Shown here: piece after piece, positions 1 through 5,776 of the stretch
How the letters are laid out: every line of letters begins with the position of its first letter
How positions within the stretch are numbered: position 1 is the stretch's first letter
IMG/VR virus record: IMGVR_UViG_3300028187_000193
Span: 1-5,776 of that record
Direction: 5' to 3' (one strand)
DNA: 5,776 nucleotides
Origin: a virus
Program-made: the position numbers and the translations under genes
Notes under the pieces: model-generated
Databases searched by the model: none
What the model saw: only the letters and a program-made list of their open reading frames with translations
Told to the model about the DNA's origin: nothing

Positions 1-114
1 CTGCGAGGCGGTGTAGTCACGCCGGTCGAGCAGCCACGAAACGATGCGAGCGCCACCGATGGAGATGGCCGCAATGGCCCCCAGCAGCGCGAAGGATGAG
101 ATAGCGTCGAACAC
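1..114 (-). CDS. Duplicate partial copy (5' part, cut by the window start) of the 76-aa membrane ORF annotated at 5537-5767
   Basis: It lies inside the terminal overlap. The GTG start at 114-112 is preceded on the minus strand by AGGGGA plus 6 nt (plus-strand tcccct at 121-126). Confidence 0.6.
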   Translation of the reverse strand, partial: MFDAISSFALLGAIAAISIGGARIVSWLLDRRDYTASQ

Positions 115-123
115 CCGTGATCC
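1..123. repeat. Terminal direct repeat, copy 1 (identical to 5654-5776); signature of a circular or tandem unit
   Basis: Base-by-base comparison by eye shows that ctgcgaggcggtgtagtcac...cgaacacccgtgatcc occurs at both ends. The match is limited only by the window edges. Confidence 0.95.
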
Positions 124-127
124 CCTG

Positions 128-177
128 CCCCAAGCCCCAAGAGATCCCGCCAGCGGCCTTGGGGTGCCGATGGCGGG
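128..177. promoter_or_regulatory. Structured leader or candidate ssDNA structure: tandem GCCCCAA x2 plus two interleaved 7-bp inverted repeats
   Basis: ccccaag (135-141) is the reverse complement of cttgggg (158-164). cccgcca (146-152) is the reverse complement of tggcggg (171-177). GCCCCAA is tandemly repeated at 127-133 and 134-140. The region lies between the putative minus-strand promoter and the first minus-strand start codon. Confidence 0.35.
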
Positions 178-178
178 T

Positions 179-196
179 GTTGAGTGATCGCTCAAC
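179..196. promoter_or_regulatory. Inverted repeat GTTGAG-TGATCG-CTCAAC, a candidate operator just downstream of the putative -10
   Basis: The 6-bp arms are perfectly complementary around a GATC-containing 6-bp core. It sits in the divergent intergenic region. Confidence 0.45.
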
Positions 197-203
197 GAGG
201 GGC

Positions 204-232
204 ATGTAAACTGATCGGGAAACACGTGTCAA
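204..232 (-). promoter_or_regulatory. Candidate sigma70-type promoter for the minus-strand phage operon
   Basis: On the minus strand there is a perfect -35 TTGACA (plus-strand tgtcaa 227-232), a 17-nt spacer, then TTACAT (plus-strand atgtaa 204-209; 3/6 match to TATAAT). It is the only perfect TTGACA in the intergenic region and it faces the operon. Confidence 0.4.
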
Positions 233-243
233 CTGATCGATCA
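209..243. promoter_or_regulatory. Operator-like repeats: AACTGATCG x2 (209-217, 231-239; 22-bp spacing), palindrome TGATCGATCA (234-243), palindrome ACACGTGT (222-229)
   Basis: Direct reading of the sequence. The repeats overlap and flank the -35 element. TGATCG recurs at 185-190, 212-217 and 234-239, and inverted at 238-243. Confidence 0.45.
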
Positions 244-255
244 ACAGGAGCCGCA

Positions 256-708
256 ATGTCAGCCGTCAACGAACTACTTGACAACGTGAAAAACCGCTTG
301 AATTTAGGCTCCGACATAGCTTTGGCGGAGCGCGTCGGCGTTACCCGATCTTTGATTTCCCGCTGGCGAAAGGGCGATACCCCCTTGTCCGATGAACGGA
401 TTGCGCAAATTTGCGCCATGGCGAAGATTGATGGCGCCACGTGGATGGCAATGATCCACGCCGAGCGAGCGACCTCCACCACCGAGCGCGCACTGTGGCG
501 ACTGATCTTGGACAGGGTGAGCGCGGCGGCGGCAGTGCTGGTGCTGGTAGTGTTCTCAGCCCCGGGCGTCGCTCGCGCAAAATCCTTTGATATTCAGTCG
601 TTTAGCGCGTCCGGCAACGACAGTATGTATATTATGTTCAGAGCGATCCGAGGGTGGCTGGCACGCATCTTGCCTCGATCCTCAGCCCTGCTGTGGCATG
701 GAGCCTGA
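256..708 (+). CDS. XRE/Cro-C1-type helix-turn-helix repressor-like protein (150 aa) with a C-proximal hydrophobic segment
   Basis: ATG at 256 is preceded by AGGAG (246-250) with a 5-nt spacer. The HTH signature is LGSDIALAERVGVTRSLISRWRKGDTPLSDERIAQIC. The hydrophobic stretch is VSAAAAVLVLVVFSAPGVA (about aa 88-106). The gene is divergent from the structural operon, like rstR-type phage repressors. The track start at 184 is a GTG lying inside the operator region and was rejected. Confidence 0.75.
   Translation: MSAVNELLDNVKNRLNLGSDIALAERVGVTRSLISRWRKGDTPLSDERIAQICAMAKIDGATWMAMIHAERATSTTERALWRLILDRVSAAAAVLVLVVFSAPGVARAKSFDIQSFSASGNDSMYIMFRAIRGWLARILPRSSALLWHGA
615..642 (+). other. dif-like 28-mer, candidate XerC/XerD recombination site (attP)
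   Basis: The site reads CAACGACAGTA-TGTATA-TTATGTTCAGA, compared with E. coli dif GGTGCGCATAA-TGTATA-TTATGTTAAAT. The central hexamer is identical, the XerD arm matches 8/11 (the first 7 are contiguous) and the XerC arm is degenerate (3/11). It is a conspicuous AT-rich island in a GC-rich genome. Confidence 0.55.
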
Positions 709-710
709 TT

Positions 711-1034
711 GTGCGTGATCGCAACCTAACCGGCCCTTGGGCCGGTTTTTCGTTTAAGGCTGACCGACTGGTCACACCCGAAGGCCGTGAGCTGGAACCG
801 CAGGATCTGGCTTGGCTCTCTCTGCTGGCAGCACAGGCGCAGGAATGGCGTCGGATGATGGAGATTGCCCGAGGCGGCCAGAAACGGCCGTTCGGGCGTG
901 CCGACATCGTTGACCTGGCCGAGGTCGCCCATCGTCGCGCAAAGCGGTCTTCCGAGGTGATGGCTGGTCCTGACGCCGATCCTGTCTCGGGTGTCCTGTC
1001 GGTACCGGGGCCGAGGCCTCGCCAGCGCGTGTGA
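711..1034 (+). CDS. Hypothetical phage protein, 107 aa, possibly DUF3653-like; translationally coupled to the repressor
   Basis: GTG at 711 is preceded by GGAG (700-703) with a 7-nt spacer and lies 2 nt after the repressor stop (TGA 706-708). The motif LTGPWAGFSFKADRLVTPEGRELEPQDLAWLSLL recalls the DUF3653 phage-protein domain (from memory, unverified). The C-terminus is basic. An alternative GTG start at 654 would overlap the repressor. Confidence 0.6.
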   Translation: MRDRNLTGPWAGFSFKADRLVTPEGRELEPQDLAWLSLLAAQAQEWRRMMEIARGGQKRPFGRADIVDLAEVAHRRAKRSSEVMAGPDADPVSGVLSVPGPRPRQRV

Positions 1035-1043
1035 GGCGCTTCC

Positions 1044-1062
1044 GTAGGGGCGCCGCCCCTAC
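1044..1062. other. GC-rich perfect hairpin (GTAGGGGCG-c-CGCCCCTAC) in the convergent intergenic region; candidate packaging signal, complementary-strand origin or atypical bidirectional terminator
   Basis: The 9-nt arms are perfectly complementary. No T/A tract follows on either strand, so it is not a canonical intrinsic terminator. It is followed by the direct repeat CACCCCTT at 1062-1069 and 1077-1084. Confidence 0.4.
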
Positions 1063-1095
1063 ACCCCTTAGACCTGCACCCCTTGATGCGCCACG

Positions 1096-2304
1096 CTAGT
1101 TCCCGCTGTAGCGATTCTGCACCGACTCAGGGAACGTAGACATAGGCCGCTCACCAACCGCAATCACTGTACCGGCAACACCACTTGGCTGTGTGTTGAT
1201 CGGTTGCACACCGGCAAGCTGGGTGGTGGCGCCAGAATCAATCTGGCGGGGTGCGCGGTAGGGATTGTAGGCGGGTCCGTCGCGTGCAATCGCAAGGCAC
1301 ACCGGCAACCTGACCTTTGCCTTGGTGCCCTGCTCGGTTACGCACGTGCAGGTAGTGTCCTGCTCGGTGGTTCCAGATGCCATGCAATACAACTCGGGTT
1401 GCGACTGCACGGACCTGTCATCGAACACGGGAGCGGACCACGGCTGAAACTCAATCCGCGGCGTGTGACGTTCGATGTACTCCTCACGCGTGAGGGGCCG
1501 TGCCGCCGGCCCGCCCGCGCCCAAGGGCGCCAGGGCTCCCGCCGCCGGCAAAGCACCGGCCCCCTCCTCCACCTTCTTGGGCGTCGGAGAAGGTTTGATG
1601 ATGAACGCATAGATCATCCAGACACCGAGAATCAGCACGATGGTCACGGACAGCGCCTGCCAAACCTTCTTAGGCACCTTGAACTTGTGACTGGCCGTGT
1701 GCAGCGTAGCGCTGCGATAGCGGCTGTACAGCGCCTTCGGGTAGGCCCAGATTTCTTCCTCGGCTTTGTCGCGCACCTTCTCATCGTAAGGATCGCTCTG
1801 CACACGCGACCACGTGAGCACGCCAGCACGCTGCATGCCGAACGAACGATTCATGTGTGTGTGCGAACCGATAAGCGTGCGCACCTGGTGGTGGATCTTG
1901 TTCGGCCATTGCGTGACGAACACAAGATCGAAGCCACGATGCCGGTGCGTAGACATTGCGCGAATGCGCGGGTCATCCGATTCGCCCGGCTTGCCCGTAG
2001 ACGGGAAAAGCCTGCCATATCGCTCAAGACCCTGTGTGTTGCCATCGGAATGCGCTTCGTCGTAGATCACGAAAGAGCCATCCGGCAGCTGCGTCCAGTC
2101 GTTGTGTTCGGGCAGCTTCTCCATCCATGGGAAGGCATCCGCGCCCTCTTCTGCCGTTGCACCCGCGATGTTCGTAAAGAAGCGACGAGGCTGCGCCTTG
2201 CCTTCCTTTACCTGCTGCTGGTTCTGCTCGTAAAACTCAAGCGCCATGGACATTGCGCGCAGGGTCTTGCCATTGCCCGGCTGACCTGAAATCAAATACA
2301 TCAT
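1096..2304 (-). CDS. zot: Zot-like / pI-family phage assembly NTPase (402 aa)
   Basis: The N-terminal Walker A is GQPGNGKT and the Walker B-like motif is FVIYDEAH. A single transmembrane segment is ALSVTIVLILGVWMIYAFII (about aa 217-236). The Cys-containing C-terminal domain includes TCTCVTEQGT. The ATG overlaps the upstream stop (ATGA at 2301-2304). Confidence 0.9.
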   Translation of the reverse strand: MMYLISGQPGNGKTLRAMSMALEFYEQNQQQVKEGKAQPRRFFTNIAGATAEEGADAFPWMEKLPEHNDWTQLPDGSFVIYDEAHSDGNTQGLERYGRLFPSTGKPGESDDPRIRAMSTHRHRGFDLVFVTQWPNKIHHQVRTLIGSHTHMNRSFGMQRAGVLTWSRVQSDPYDEKVRDKAEEEIWAYPKALYSRYRSATLHTASHKFKVPKKVWQALSVTIVLILGVWMIYAFIIKPSPTPKKVEEGAGALPAAGALAPLGAGGPAARPLTREEYIERHTPRIEFQPWSAPVFDDRSVQSQPELYCMASGTTEQDTTCTCVTEQGTKAKVRLPVCLAIARDGPAYNPYRAPRQIDSGATTQLAGVQPINTQPSGVAGTVIAVGERPMSTFPESVQNRYSGN

Positions 2305-2585
2305 TTGGAAGCTACCTTTTGAACGGCGACCTTGCCCGCATCAATGACGACCTTGGTCACGATGGCGGATCCAATCATCGTGATGGCCTCCCCTGCCCCG
2401 GCCATGAGCATCACGTTTGCTAGATCCGCTGAAATGCCCGACCACTTCTGCGTAATGAGGTTTAGTGCGCCCTTGACAAGCGGCAGGAGCGCTGCGCCTG
2501 TGGCAAGACCAAGACCCGCGCCGGTCAGTACACGCGCAAGGGAGTTGCCCAAGAGTTGAGTAAGAAACGCGGCGAGCCAAGGCAT
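2301..2585 (-). CDS. pVI-position small membrane protein (94 aa), DUF2523-like from memory; minor coat or Ace-position homolog
   Basis: The start MPWLAAFL at 2585 overlaps the pIII stop (TAATG at 2583-2587). The protein has multiple hydrophobic Gly/Ala-rich helices and sits immediately upstream of zot, as in CTXphi (ace) and Ff (gVI). The 16-codon N-terminal extension in the track was rejected. Confidence 0.7.
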   Translation of the reverse strand: MPWLAAFLTQLLGNSLARVLTGAGLGLATGAALLPLVKGALNLITQKWSGISADLANVMLMAGAGEAITMIGSAIVTKVVIDAGKVAVQKVASK

Positions 2586-3556
2586 TACTTGCGTACTCCT
2601 GAAACGATGATGGCGGCTGCCACAGCAGCGCAAGCGATGACTAGCCCCCTGATCAGCAGTGCAAAATCACAGAGAGGCTTGAACTCGAAACTGATGGACG
2701 TGGAGATGGAGCCAACTCCTACAGTCATGGTCTTTGCAGCAGGGCAGGAGCCGCCACCAAGGCCGCTGGACCACTGGCCGAGATAGCTACTCGGAATAGG
2801 CGGGTCGGCGTAAGGCATCGGAATGTCGCCCGGATACGTTGGGTTCTCTGGAAGGCTGGGATTCTCTCCATCACCGTCGCCATCACCGTCGCCATCCTCA
2901 CCGCCGTCACTATCCCCGTCGCCATCACCATCACCGTTGCCACCGCCCTCGCCGTCTCCACCACCGCCATCACCGCCACCATCTCCATCACCACCGCCAT
3001 CGCCTCCGCCGTCTCCGTCACCGCCACCCGTCTCCCCGCCGGTGCCACCGCCATCATCACCACCGCCATCGCCAGCAGGCTTAGGCTCAGGCGCATCGGC
3101 GTTGGTACACACCCCTCCCGTAGGCGCATAGCTGACGCCCGCAACGCCCTGGGGATCCAAAGCGCTGGAATACATGCAGCCGTTATAACAGACGTTCACG
3201 GAGCCCGCAGTAGTGCCGCCCTCCCACCCAAATTCTTCCGGCCTCGCACTGCACTTGACGGTGAACATGCGGGTTTTGGAGGCGTAGCGCCCGTTAGAGG
3301 CAGTAGAGGGCCTGATGAAGCCCACGTAGGTGCCGACGCCATCGAGCTCGACAAATGGCGACCACTTTTGGCCGCCAATAGCATTAGAACGGCCAGCCTG
3401 ATCAGTAGCGGCCGCCCATGCTGCGGTATACGCGGTGCCCTGATCCGGACAAGAATCCGACCCAACGTCAGCGCTGTGCGAGCAGGTGCCAACCTGAGCC
3501 GACGTAGGAGCGCTATACAGCGCAGCAAGCATGATCGCGAAGAGTATGCGTAACAT
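2585..3556 (-). CDS. pIII-like minor coat / host adsorption protein (323 aa)
   Basis: The signal peptide MLRILFAIMLAALYSAPTSA is probably cleaved before Q21. The N-terminal domain is Cys-containing. A Gly/Asp-rich linker spans aa 162-230. The C-terminal domain ends in the membrane anchor ALLIRGLVIACAAVAAAIIV plus a basic tail. The gene lies between the coat and pVI-like genes. Confidence 0.8.
   Translation of the reverse strand: MLRILFAIMLAALYSAPTSAQVGTCSHSADVGSDSCPDQGTAYTAAWAAATDQAGRSNAIGGQKWSPFVELDGVGTYVGFIRPSTASNGRYASKTRMFTVKCSARPEEFGWEGGTTAGSVNVCYNGCMYSSALDPQGVAGVSYAPTGGVCTNADAPEPKPAGDGGGDDGGGTGGETGGGDGDGGGDGGGDGDGGGDGGGGDGEGGGNGDGDGDGDSDGGEDGDGDGDGDGENPSLPENPTYPGDIPMPYADPPIPSSYLGQWSSGLGGGSCPAAKTMTVGVGSISTSISFEFKPLCDFALLIRGLVIACAAVAAAIIVSGVRK
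2867..3073. repeat. Low-complexity imperfect tandem repeat (GGN/GAY codons) encoding the G/D-rich pIII linker
   Basis: The plus strand reads as reiterated caccgccatc / caccgtcgccat units. The translation contains GDGGGDGGGDGDGGGDGGGGDGEGGGNGDGDGDGD. Confidence 0.85.
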
Positions 3557-3619
3557 CTAATCACCGAACGCGATGTACAGCGCGGCAGTGCCAGCGCACA
3601 GCACGAAAAGACCCAGCAT
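3557..3619 (-). CDS. Hypothetical hydrophobic micro-ORF (20 aa, MLGLFVLCAGTAALYIAFGD; 25 aa if started at 3634)
   Basis: ATG at 3619 is preceded by GGGGGGA with a 6-nt spacer. The stop TAG (3557-3559) directly abuts the pIII ATG (3556), which suggests translational coupling. The ORF is not in the supplied track and is too short for statistical support. Confidence 0.3.
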   Translation of the reverse strand: MLGLFVLCAGTAALYIAFGD

Positions 3620-3634
3620 CACGAATCCCCCCAT

Positions 3635-3662
3635 AAAAAAAGGGGCCGGATCGCCCGGCCCC
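3635..3662 (-). terminator. Rho-independent terminator or attenuator immediately after the major coat gene
   Basis: The minus strand reads GGGGCCGG-GCGAT-CCGGCCCC followed by TTTTTTT. It begins 12 nt after the coat stop codon. Ff phages have an analogous terminator after gVIII. Confidence 0.8.
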
Positions 3663-3674
3663 GTGCTACAGCGA

Positions 3675-3812
3675 TCAACCGAAGATCGCGCCCTTCAGCC
3701 ACTTGAAGCCGACCGAGATTGCGGCCGGTGCCAGCTTGGCGGCGCCGATAGCGCCCAAGACGGCAGACAGTCCAGCCAGAACGGTCAGTGCAGCAGTTGC
3801 GTCAAGATCCAT
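3675..3812 (-). CDS. Major coat protein candidate (pVIII analog), 45 aa, apparently leaderless (Pf3-like layout)
   Basis: Manual translation gives MDLDATAALTVLAGLSAVLGAIGAAKLAPAAISVGFKWLKGAIFG. The N-terminus is acidic, the core is hydrophobic and the C-terminus is basic/aromatic (FKWLKGAIF, compare Pf3 IRWIKAQFF). The RBS is AAGGGG with a 6-nt spacer. The gene lies between the small coat-like ORF and pIII and is followed by a strong terminator. Confidence 0.7.
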   Translation of the reverse strand: MDLDATAALTVLAGLSAVLGAIGAAKLAPAAISVGFKWLKGAIFG

Positions 3813-3827
3813 GGTGTTCCCCTTTCG

Positions 3828-4019
3828 TTAGTTGCGGATAGTTCTGCCTATCTGTTTGTAAGCCCATGCCACGGCGAAGCACACCGCAACCATGGACAGA
3901 ATCCCCGTAACCTCGGCAGTAGAAAGGCTGGGAATTTCGGTGCGCGGCACGAATCCGGCTTGCGCGCACTCACCGGTCTGCTGGTTGAACTGCAAGCATT
4001 CGTAGACGTACCGCGCCAT
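3828..4019 (-). CDS. Small membrane protein (63 aa), candidate minor coat protein (pVII/pIX position)
   Basis: The ATG lies 3 nt after the ssDNA-binding gene stop. The C-terminal transmembrane segment is VTGILSMVAVCFAVAWAY and is followed by the basic tail KQIGRTIRN. The N-terminal part has two Cys residues. Confidence 0.55.
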   Translation of the reverse strand: MARYVYECLQFNQQTGECAQAGFVPRTEIPSLSTAEVTGILSMVAVCFAVAWAYKQIGRTIRN

Positions 4020-4022
4020 GAC

Positions 4023-4325
4023 TCAGGCCTGCGCTGCGGCGCGCGGTGCAGCCTTGGGCAGCATGCGCAGGATGGTGAACTTGCTCAGCGAGGCAACGCC
4101 CTTGTTGACCTGCAACATGGATTCGATATCGAGCTCGTACTCGCCTTCGGGGTAACCCGGCTGACCCTTGTCCAGGCGCACGTCAAACGGATAGGCGAAA
4201 CCACCGGTTTCGAGCTTGGCCTTCTGCTTGCGCGTGGTGTACTCGACGTTGTCGCCAGCATCGTTCTTGAAGCTGCCGCCGCGTTCGTCGATTTCGTTCT
4301 TCAGGACGGTGACCTTGACGCTCAT
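4023..4325 (-). CDS. gV-like single-stranded DNA-binding protein (100 aa)
   Basis: The gene sits directly after Rep (3-nt gap) with RBS GAGGGG. Its size and residue pattern (VKV...ERGGSFKNDAGD...YPF...GEYEL...VNKG) resemble the Pf3/Xanthomonas-type inovirus ssDNA-binding OB-fold proteins. This is from memory and has not been searched. Confidence 0.65.
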   Translation of the reverse strand: MSVKVTVLKNEIDERGGSFKNDAGDNVEYTTRKQKAKLETGGFAYPFDVRLDKGQPGYPEGEYELDIESMLQVNKGVASLSKFTILRMLPKAAPRAAAQA

Positions 4326-4328
4326 GTG

Positions 4329-5435
4329 TTACCCCTCTTGGGTTGGTTGTACGGCCGCGATTTCGGGCCAATGCGCTGCTGTTTCGCCTGTTACCCACCT
4401 CGGCAGCTTTGGCGAGGTGCAGGATTCAACGACCGTCCGCAACGACTGATCGTCCGGACAGTTCTTGGAGATGAAATTCAGAGCCGCGCCGTACTGACGG
4501 CGGATGTGGCGACGAACGCTCTTCCACGTGGCTTCAACGGCTGCTTTCGTGATTTCGATTCGGGTGGCGACACAGTTGAGAAAGCTCAGCACCGGATAGG
4601 CGCCCAGCAGGTACGTCGCTGGGTCACGCAGAATGTCGAGCGGCAGTTCCTTGCGATTGGAGTTGCGGAACTGCGCTTCGTAGCGCACCCACGGCGAATT
4701 CTTGTCGCCCTGCTCCCTGCCCTTCTCATACACGCGCAGCTGCTTTTCGGACTTCTTGCCACCCACATAGAACGTTTTGCCGTCACCGCTGTCGTAGTCG
4801 TCCACCAGCTGTGCTTTAGGGCGCTGACCACGGTTGTCAAAGTCGCCCTGGCTGTACCACTTCTGTGCCAGACGCAGCGGGTAATCACCCACAAGGTCAT
4901 CGGCGCATACATCCACTCGGGTAATCCTTCCGGCGCAGCTTTCGAGCTTCGCTCGAAGCTCCAGCCACCGCTGCGCATGGCCGCAGCGCGCTGCACCTAG
5001 CGCTTTGCATCCGTCACCCGTCAATTCAAGGCGTGCGGTGTAGGTGCCATCGGCACGGCGGCACTCTTCGCCACCGAGTTCAATCATCCCGACGAACTTC
5101 TTAGCCGCGTCGATGATCTTGATTCGCCACGTGTAGAAGCGACCGCCGCCAACGGTTTCATCCAGCTCAAGCCCGAGCCCGGCGAAGAACCAGCAGAACA
5201 CCTGCAGGGCCGCAATGCGTGCGTTGTCCGGGGAGAACTCAATCCACTGCCGGACCTCTTCGAAGCTATCGCCATCACGAAACGCGAGTTCGTCCAGCGC
5301 TGCGCGCAGGTCGATGGAAGCGGAAAACCAGTCAATGCCGACCGTCAGGGTTCCCTGTGCATTCCTGAATTCACTGACTCCCCTGTTAGACGAGGGGAGT
5401 CCCGACTCGGCCAGCACCGCACGATCACCGGCCAT
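4329..5435 (-). CDS. Rolling-circle replication initiator, Rep_trans / RstA (phage Cri) family (368 aa)
   Basis: Family motifs recognised by eye are RITRVDVCADD, TFYVGGKKSEKQLRVYEKGREQG and WVRYEAQFRN. The preferred start is ATG at 5435 (MAGDRAVL), preceded by GGAAGGGTGG. The track start at 5510 adds a Cys/Arg-rich 25-aa extension that overlaps the better-supported 39-aa ORF. Confidence 0.85.
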   Translation of the reverse strand: MAGDRAVLAESGLPSSNRGVSEFRNAQGTLTVGIDWFSASIDLRAALDELAFRDGDSFEEVRQWIEFSPDNARIAALQVFCWFFAGLGLELDETVGGGRFYTWRIKIIDAAKKFVGMIELGGEECRRADGTYTARLELTGDGCKALGAARCGHAQRWLELRAKLESCAGRITRVDVCADDLVGDYPLRLAQKWYSQGDFDNRGQRPKAQLVDDYDSGDGKTFYVGGKKSEKQLRVYEKGREQGDKNSPWVRYEAQFRNSNRKELPLDILRDPATYLLGAYPVLSFLNCVATRIEITKAAVEATWKSVRRHIRRQYGAALNFISKNCPDDQSLRTVVESCTSPKLPRWVTGETAAHWPEIAAVQPTQEG

Positions 5436-5544
5436 TGCAACCACCCTTCCGGCGCAGAGCGAACACCAGCGACCAATACAGCCCCGTGAGCAGCACGCCG
5501 CCAACGACATAGATGACCAGCGGTTCGCGGAAGAAATCAGCCAT
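5425..5544 (-). CDS. Hypothetical single-pass membrane peptide (39 aa)
   Basis: ATG at 5544 is preceded by a consensus AGGAGG with a 6-nt spacer. It overlaps the upstream ORF stop (ATGGCTGA) and the Rep start by 11 nt. The sequence is MADFFREPLVIYVVGGVLLTGLYWSLVFALRRKGGCNGR, with one clear transmembrane helix and a basic tail. Confidence 0.55.
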   Translation of the reverse strand: MADFFREPLVIYVVGGVLLTGLYWSLVFALRRKGGCNGR

Positions 5545-5767
5545 GGACGGCCTCCTGCTGCTCAGCGAGGCGGGCAGCGGCCAGCAGATCGCCACGCTTG
5601 GTGGCGGCAATCTCAGCGCGTGCGAGCGCGATTACCTGGGCTTCGCGTGACCGCTGCGAGGCGGTGTAGTCACGCCGGTCGAGCAGCCACGAAACGATGC
5701 GAGCGCCACCGATGGAGATGGCCGCAATGGCCCCCAGCAGCGCGAAGGATGAGATAGCGTCGAACAC
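5537..5767 (-). CDS. Hypothetical membrane-anchored protein (76 aa), first gene of the minus-strand operon
   Basis: The start is GTG at 5767 (equivalent to 114 in copy 1). The RBS AGGGGA with a 6-nt spacer is visible in copy 1. The N-terminal transmembrane segment is FALLGAIAAISIGGARIVSWLL, followed by an Ala/Arg/Glu-rich helical tail. Confidence 0.5.
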   Translation of the reverse strand: MFDAISSFALLGAIAAISIGGARIVSWLLDRRDYTASQRSREAQVIALARAEIAATKRGDLLAAARLAEQQEAVHG

Positions 5768-5776
5768 CCGTGATCC
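5654..5776. repeat. Terminal direct repeat, copy 2 (identical to 1-123)
   Basis: Same 123-nt string as at 1-123. Confidence 0.95.

Follow-up and report, generated by a model that had tools for sequence, protein, structure and literature searches.

How does a filamentous phage that carries no integrase gene become part of a bacterial chromosome, and what becomes of a phage gene when the crossover lies inside it? These questions are raised by a viral DNA of 5,776 nucleotides, IMG/VR record IMGVR_UViG_3300028187_000193 (positions 1 to 5,776; we refer to this whole stretch as the window). The window is a small filamentous phage (Inoviridae) of Stenotrophomonas. At positions 615–642, in the 3' part of a gene for a helix-turn-helix (HTH) regulator, it carries a 28-bp sequence that resembles dif, the chromosomal site of the XerC/XerD recombinases. 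An initial annotation, made from the DNA letters, had proposed this 28-mer as an attP. We consider the proposal very probably correct: 615–642 would be the attP of an integrase-less temperate filamentous phage, whose double-stranded replicative form enters host dif via XerC/XerD. Integration itself is a reciprocal exchange of one double-stranded phage site with dif. The site is built as follows, in coordinates of the window.

615..642, plus strand: dif-like attP, 28 bp (11-bp arm, 6-bp central region, 11-bp arm), defined by the window sequence and by hybrid junctions with host dif in the prophage assemblies L015–L017.
615..625, plus strand: degenerate XerC-side arm CAACGACAGTA, which goes to attR; 3/11 matches to host ATTTCGCATAA.
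626..631, plus strand: central (overlap) region TGTATA, the same in host dif; the strand exchanges must fall at its borders.
632..642, plus strand: XerD-side arm TTATGTTCAGA, which goes to attL (new complete dif); 10/11 matches to host TTATGTTCAAA.
625..640, plus strand: unbroken identity between attP and attB, ATGTATATTATGTTCA, from comparison of attP with empty attB and with the junctions; 15 nt against the TTATGTTCTAA variant.

How closely does this sequence resemble a Xer site? The full 28-mer is CAACGACAGTATGTATATTATGTTCAGA, that is, CAACGACAGTA TGTATA TTATGTTCAGA. Set against dif of E. coli K12 (GGTGCGCATAATGTATATTATGTTAAAT, split as GGTGCGCATAA TGTATA TTATGTTAAAT; PMC2731167), it has the identical central hexamer, a right arm that matches the XerD arm at 8/11 positions and a left arm that matches at 3/11, all in agreement with the initial description, in which the XerC arm was called degenerate. 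Alignment with the host site ATTTCGCATAA TGTATA TTATGTTCAAA yields 6/6 matches in the central region, 10/11 in the right arm and, again, 3/11 in the left arm. The core 13-mer TGTATATTATGTT occurs once in the window, both strands counted, with up to two mismatches allowed (expected occurrence 0.01), and the same search found a match in 3 of 200 shuffled sequences. No second dif-like site was found in the window in either orientation under relaxed matching, which upholds the earlier view of a single attP. The core encodes SMYIMF as stated, these being codons 123–128 (S123 to F128) of the 256–708 open reading frame (ORF). The claim that this is the sole strongly AT-rich patch holds for the lowest-GC 14-mer (GC 0.14 at 622–625), but not at 20–28 nt, where the patch ties with others near 579 and 2287. 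An inverted repeat that abuts the left arm (592–602 / 616–626) was set aside as a chance occurrence; it looks unconserved in the alignment with the Stenotrophomonas phage phiSHP2.

Do chromosomes contain this phage, and where do the integrated copies end? Exact look-up of the 107-amino-acid (aa) protein encoded directly downstream of the regulator, ORF107, retrieved three assemblies, L015 (CP040429.1, a complete 4.54-Mb chromosome), L016 and L017, each with a chromosomal prophage 92–99.8% identical to the window. Homology to the window begins at 625 at the left end of all three prophages. On the right, L016 matches as far as 644, and L015 and L017 as far as 676 via a decayed fossil of a phage tail. 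In each case attL consists of the host arm ATTTCGCATAA, TGTATA and the phage arm TTATGTTCAGA, followed by the window from 643 on; attR consists of the phage arm CAACGACAGTA, TGTATA and either TTATGTTCTAA (L015, L017) or TTATGTTCAAA (L016), followed by host DNA. The crossover thus lies inside the 28-mer and the prophages are flanked by hybrid dif sites, as the initial annotation had anticipated. The left arm CAACGACAGTA is present at attR of L015, L016, L017, L072 and L073.

More distant relatives, taken from one-per-species genomes, are inserted likewise in S. maltophilia D5.1 (L005), S. forensis (L006), S. terrae (L011) and X. euvesicatoria (L007); of the two left arms in each, one is of host type and the other, at the opposite end, of phage type. 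Among IMG/VR proviruses at least 14 repeat this pattern, with a site bearing the host arm as their left border and one bearing the phage arm as their right; two of the 29 matches to the IMG/VR pattern, L069 and L074, come from giant-virus bins and were discarded as chance matches in AT-rich DNA. No copy inserted at a tRNA or at a different att core, the outcome that the initial annotation named as contrary to its proposal, was seen among the prophages examined.

What is the host partner of this exchange? Judged by its sequence it is the Xanthomonad dif in canonical form: the host arm ATTTCGCATAA with TGTATA is identical in XerC arm and centre to the dif published for X. campestris, once the entry in PMC2731167 is reverse-complemented. 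In chromosome coordinates, attL falls at 50.1% of CP040429.1 and, in S. forensis, at 51.2% of NZ_CP082270.1. A metagenome scan for the predicted empty attB recovered the unoccupied site ATTTCGCATAATGTATATTATGTTCAAA on 36 contigs. On L031, L033, L039, L042 and L050, among others, ATTTCGCATAATGTATATTATGTTCAAA abuts the right flank of the L016 attR, with 97% identity from the first base, and L033 and L039 are additionally colinear with the left flank of L015. Because these empty sites share the prophage flanks, the locus exists both occupied and empty. TGTATA is the same in attP, empty attB, attL and attR, so that the host dif does have the compatible central region that the initial annotation presupposed.

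Is it the DNA of the site that is conserved, or the peptide that it encodes? The Stenotrophomonas inoviruses phiSHP2, phiSMA7 and phiSMA6 share gene order and the HTH–attP–DUF3653 module with the window. The block TGTATATTATGTTC, identical to that of the window, is invariant in all three, as is TGTATA, and the flanks on both sides diverge. phiSHP2 matches the window at only 83.5% identity across 81% of the window length, and the left arm CAACGACAGTA is the window's own. phiSMA6 translates TGTATATTATGTTC out of register, as HSVYYV instead of GMYIMF, and regains the frame downstream; L006 likewise keeps the DNA block in another reading frame. Because the phiSMA6 block keeps its DNA while the frame differs, it is the DNA that is constrained and not the peptide. 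The 'proviral' GenBank record of phiSMA7 starts and stops exactly at ...GTATGTATATTATGTT / CAAAGC, inside ORF150 and right after ...TGTATATTATGTT; since the record is cut exactly there, its depositors placed the prophage ends at attP.

Which genes does the crossover rearrange? Three features surround the site.

256..708, plus strand: HTH (XRE-type) regulator/repressor, 150 aa, with a DUF3693 region, identified by Pfam HTH_3 and DUF3693; attP occupies codons 120–129.
711..1034, plus strand: DUF3653 protein, 107 aa (ORF107), homologous to PSB15 and to the XafT domain; Pfam DUF3653, E = 4e-9.
177..246, plus strand: three repeats of ~20 nt, TGTnnAnTGATCGnnnAACA, 5' of the repressor start; putative operators.

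Against PF12375 ORF107 reaches 36.9 bits, where the cut-off is 22.4. Its GTG start (711) lies 2 nt past the repressor stop and 69 nt past the last base of attP (642). The regulator is 150 aa long in the window and in the episomal contigs L018–L022, which are 100% identical to the window and include one circular-type contig of 5,683 nt. In L015 and L017 it is 128 aa long and ends ...SMYIMF-stop, the TAA being supplied by the host arm (TTC TAA); in L016 it has 131 aa and ends ...SMYIMFKAD-stop. Integration therefore alters the C-terminus of the repressor, as predicted, with 22 residues lost or 19–22 replaced. In relatives the regulators range from 123 to 149 aa and carry unrelated tails. In the L015–L017 prophages ORF107 adjoins attL, and the regulator reads outward through attR, which puts the two genes at opposite prophage ends, again as first proposed. 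Episomal forms conserve the tail that is lost (GWLARxLP...LLWHGA), and this pattern suggests that the full-length regulator has a function of its own. By analogy with what has been proposed for ORF13 of phiRSS0 and ORF12 of XacF1, full-length and truncated regulators may differ in function.

Several smaller features accompany these genes. The motif copies at 177–246 (GTGTTGAGTGATCGCTCAAC, TGTAAACTGATCGGGAAACA and TGTCAACTGATCGATCAACA), just 5' of the repressor start codon, are probable operators of a regulatory switch in a divergent regulatory region. At 517–567 (repressor residues ~88–104) the DUF3693 match includes a strongly hydrophobic segment, AAAAVLVLVVFSAPGVA, that is conserved in the Xanthomonas phage phiLf2; it suggests a membrane-anchored HTH protein, with the tail that integration alters located beyond the anchor. 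A GC-rich hairpin followed by a T-run (AACCGGCCCTTGGGCCGGTT TTTCGTTT) is found at 728–747, within the first codons of ORF107, where the DNA-binding motif LTGPWAGF is encoded. It may act to terminate or attenuate transcription past the repressor gene, or be a mere by-product of the codons. A scan of window positions 1–1150 for sigma-70 promoters gave no match, which says nothing either way about a promoter of ORF107's own in the prophage.

How would such a site be recombined? That recombination at attP depends on XerC and XerD we infer from the sequence. XerD would bind the well-conserved right arm and cooperatively recruit XerC onto the poor left arm. Both strand pairs would then be exchanged; the crossover falls within the 15–16 bp common to attP and dif (central TGTATA plus inner XerD arm), which is as finely as the sequence places it. 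Because the 6-bp centre fully matches dif, the exchange should be completable and reversible, and excision would restore attP and attB. At the junctions, attL joins host XerC arm and phage XerD arm into a complete dif that can still resolve chromosome dimers and can take up further elements, and attR pairs the degenerate phage arm with a host XerD arm. The regulator is cut after codon 128, with a stop from the host arm or a few codons on, and the translationally coupled DUF3653 gene is carried to the other prophage end, off the regulator's promoter. XafT of TLCphi, which combines HTH-XRE and DUF3653 domains, activates XerD catalysis (PMC6744903). By analogy the DUF3653 protein of the window might activate XerD without FtsK, a sub-step that we can entertain but lean slightly against.

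Several observations weigh against this account. The evidence for XerC/XerD action on attP is of a comparative kind, and with an XerC arm of 3/11 the positioning of XerC is unexplained. phiLf-UK without PSB15 (DUF3653) integrates undiminished, and PSB15 binds the packaging signal (bioRxiv 10.1101/2024.03.19.585677); because PSB15 is dispensable for integration of phiLf-UK, the XafT-like sub-step is weakened and a recombination role of ORF107 is uncertain. Placement near the terminus is judged from chromosome coordinates and not from a verified origin, and GC skew across the 20-kb L006 locus has no clear sign change. Decayed phage-tail remnants occur in several right flanks, so that some of the 'host' arms at attR stem from earlier elements and not from a pristine dif.

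Could the same prophages arise by another route? In the manner of VGJphi, attP and dif might be joined with XerC making the sole productive exchange, independent of FtsK and of any phage factor, after which replication would resolve the pseudo-Holliday junction; the DUF3653 protein would then be an assembly factor only. One double-stranded site and no integrase fit this scheme, as does the integration of phiLf-UK in the absence of PSB15 (bioRxiv 10.1101/2024.03.19.585677). VGJphi-type sites, however, have canonical XerC and XerD arms, the former being good, and central homology limited to the XerC side, so that the centre blocks XerD exchange. With its XerC arm of 3/11 and a centre that matches dif at 6/6, attP presents the reverse of what favours catalysis by XerC only. 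DUF3653 genes, moreover, cluster at dif-integrated elements (PMC6744903), and we regard an exchange by XerC only as doubtful. Folding of the packaged single strand, with two inverted dif-like half-sites as the substrate as in CTXphi, would suit a single-stranded phage genome and a left arm that is poor as duplex. Yet no second dif-like site is found on either strand even with very relaxed matching, both prophage ends derive from one site by simple reciprocal exchange, and episomal and integrated forms interconvert without sequence loss. A folded substrate is thus extremely improbable, in keeping with the initial preference for integration of the double-stranded replicative form.

Two explanations would do without Xer recombination altogether. 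attP and attB share merely a short identical stretch, over which RecA-dependent homologous recombination might act, and the two mechanisms are inseparable by sequence alone. But 15–16 bp is, as is well established, far under the length of efficient RecA substrates, the identity coincides exactly with the centre and XerD arm of dif, the same precise junction recurs among phages with differing flanks, and the literature treats the homologous sites of related phages as Xer sites; RecA is a very improbable agent here. If, on the other hand, the resemblance to dif were due to the MYIMF codons and had no function at the DNA level, a patch inside an ORF and the conservation of MYIM in most relatives would be expected, and both are seen. 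That phiSMA6 and L006 retain the DNA block in a different frame speaks against such a coincidence, as does a chance expectation of 0.01 per genome, and prophage junctions exactly at the patch refute it unless the assemblies are artefactual, which leaves it a negligible prospect. The reading that we prefer is accordingly the one set out above, entry of the double-stranded form into dif via XerC/XerD.

Has this arrangement been seen before? A parallel is offered by phiLf2, in which a site annotated 'xerc/d recombination' has the same position, orientation and frame (..RIMYIMS.. against ..SMYIMF.. in the window). Its HTH protein is 47% identical to the window regulator, with the MYIM codons aligned, and its ORF112-like DUF3653 protein, located 3' of the HTH part, is 44% identical to ORF107, with the motifs LTG/WAGFSF/TPEG. 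In phiLf2 (L059 4989–5840, minus strand) the HTH part, an attP-encoded linker and DUF3653/PSB15 can be read as one ORF of 283 aa, the domain order of XafT, the Xer activator of Vibrio TLCphi, whereas the window has two coupled ORFs. Integration at dif splits the regulator ORF (ORF12) in the Xanthomonas phages phiLf, phiLf-UK, phiLf2, Cf1c and XacF1, and so it does in the window, where attP lies in the 3' part of an HTH regulator homologous to that of phiLf2. For XacF1, attP has been described within the regulator gene ORF12, which is truncated on integration (PMC5666396). The difference lies in the XerC arm: phiLf2 attP retains a good one, TCTTCGCATAA (9/11), against 3/11 in the window. The published 15-bp core of the phiLf/Cf1c/XacF1 type, TATACATTATGCGAA, comprises XerC arm and centre, whereas the identity in the window comprises centre and XerD arm; of the 15-bp core TTCGCATAATGTATA (XerC arm plus centre) the window holds ATGTATA only.

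Phages of other hosts share the plan in part. In the Ralstonia phage phiRSS0 a dif-like attP lies in the 3' end of the HTH regulator ORF13, integration by host XerCD shortens the protein from 156 to 130 aa, and distinct roles were proposed for full and truncated ORF13 (PMC3816273). The repressor/attP overlap cited for RSS0-type phages in the initial annotation is thus on record. phiRSS0 belongs to another phage lineage with another host dif (TATTTAACATAAGATAAAT), and it is likened to the window by description only. TLCphi of Vibrio cholerae resembles the window in its lack of an integrase, a centre compatible with full exchange, HTH-XRE and DUF3653 beside attP, and one degenerate arm (PMC6744903). 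The degenerate arm of TLCphi, however, is the XerD arm, with the XerC arm intact; in the window the reverse is seen, with 10/11 for XerD and 3/11 for XerC, and XafT is a single fusion protein, unlike the window's pair. Among integrative mobile elements that exploit Xer (IMEXs) with DUF3653/XafT, DUF3653 genes adjoin dif in Xanthomonadales phages (PMC6744903). In Vibrio IMEX prophages a repressor gene and an XafT-like gene flank attP and become the terminal gene pair (PMC12715192), a pair that L015–L017 share; the Vibrio attP is described as lying between genes and not in the repressor coding sequence, and hosts and dif sequences differ. Of the features of an IMEX attP, the window has the 11+6+11-bp layout with a dif-matching centre, the XerD arm, no integrase and prophages flanked by hybrid sites. 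It lacks a recognisable XerC arm (CAACGACAGTA, 3/11 against host ATTTCGCATAA). The logic of lysogeny is already described for phiRSS0, XacF1, phiLf and Vibrio IMEXs, and here known biology is confirmed. The point of wider interest is Xer recombination on an attP whose XerC arm is almost wholly degenerate.

How general is this degeneracy? The left arms form two clean classes. Host-type XerC arms score 9–11/11, and the phage-type left arms of the Stenotrophomonas-centred group score 2–5/11 in all members examined (~27 IMG/VR contigs plus genomes); XerD arms score 7–11/11 everywhere. These two arm classes indicate that attP relies on the centre and the XerD arm, with attL a working dif and attR a crippled site. 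A literature search for degenerate or non-canonical XerC arms found only minor variants of Vibrio dif and no such attP class, the paper on phiSMA6/phiSMA7 integration being outside that search. Tentatively, and with more doubt than belief, the Stenotrophomonas group may be an uncharacterised class of Xer-exploiting attP, a mirror of TLCphi with a good XerD arm, a perfect centre and an XerC arm that is essentially absent. If so, XerC would be placed by protein contacts alone, or with the help of the split XafT-like pair of HTH and DUF3653 proteins encoded astride the site. The crippled attR could shield the prophage from FtsK-driven excision, and integration would be a physical switch that truncates the HTH protein at a host-supplied stop and uncouples the DUF3653 assembly/activation factor from its promoter. 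A strict mirror of the Cf/Lf-type attP was considered too strong a description, since phiLf2 keeps both arms; the group is more aptly placed in the attP lineage of the Cf/Lf type, as a branch whose XerC arm has decayed.

These comparisons fix exactly where, in which orientation and with what junctions a group of small filamentous phages of Stenotrophomonas integrates, which allows precise annotation of prophage borders near dif. Natural episomal, integrated and empty-site sequences show the change of the regulator from 150 to 128/131 aa and its separation from the PSB15/XafT-like gene.

The genome itself is circular and measures 5,653 nt; the window runs past one full turn of it, with positions 1–123 duplicated at 5654–5776. 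Besides phiSHP2, partial matches come from phiSMA7, PSH1, phiSMA6 and Xanthomonas phiLf2. Genes on the minus strand encode Rep_trans, a single-stranded DNA-binding protein, small coat proteins, a glycine-rich pIII-like protein, DUF2523 and Zot; the plus strand carries the 150-aa HTH_3/DUF3693 regulator (256–708) and, 2 nt later, the 107-aa DUF3653 protein (711–1034). Pfam assigned the seven largest ORFs to Rep_trans, Phage_DNA_bind, Zot, DUF2523, HTH_3/DUF3693 and DUF3653. No integrase or recombinase was detected by Pfam on these seven ORFs, in line with the initial annotation, and the other conserved ORFs are shorter than 80 aa. Compared with the window, the L015–L017 prophages contain ~335 bp extra between ORF107 and zot (L015 10362–10697, matching window 1072), which hold a small ORF of 68–105 aa. 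Their regulatory module is 98–99.8% identical to that of the window and their structural genes only 92–94%, a contrast that indicates modular exchange.

The surroundings of dif are themselves variable. To the left of dif almost every one of the 36 metagenome contigs has a different flank; to its right the flank is kept in many. On L027 (415–4400) and L051 (4397–8385), ~3.9 kb of unrelated DNA lies between the XerD arm of dif and the conserved right flank; the inserts begin some 20–55 nt past the XerD arm and may represent a further element directed at the vicinity of dif by a different route. In L016 (1082–6497) a BrxR/WYL gene and an operon resembling a cyclic-oligonucleotide-based antiphage signalling system (patatin, DncV-like nucleotidyltransferase, ThiF/E1 and JAB) lie directly beside dif/attL, on its XerC side. 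The repressor tail and ORF107 region often recur in decayed form on the host side of dif, in L005 (10389–10800), L015 (15913–16300), L006 (10390 onward) and, to the right of the site, L037 and L058; these copies resemble remnants of earlier integration events, so that some 'host' XerD arms are phage-derived. L005 also has, at ~3000–3026 on the minus strand and ~870 bp left of attL, another dif-like sequence, which is inverted (ACTTCGCATAA CGTATC TTATGTTTCTG). Finally, in S. riyadhensis (L004 1347–2056, site at 1956) a phiSMA7-like repressor and left arm are joined to a phiSMA6-like tail (TCATGCTGAGGTGGCTGG), a junction that suggests either two different phages arrayed in tandem or a recombinant made at attP.

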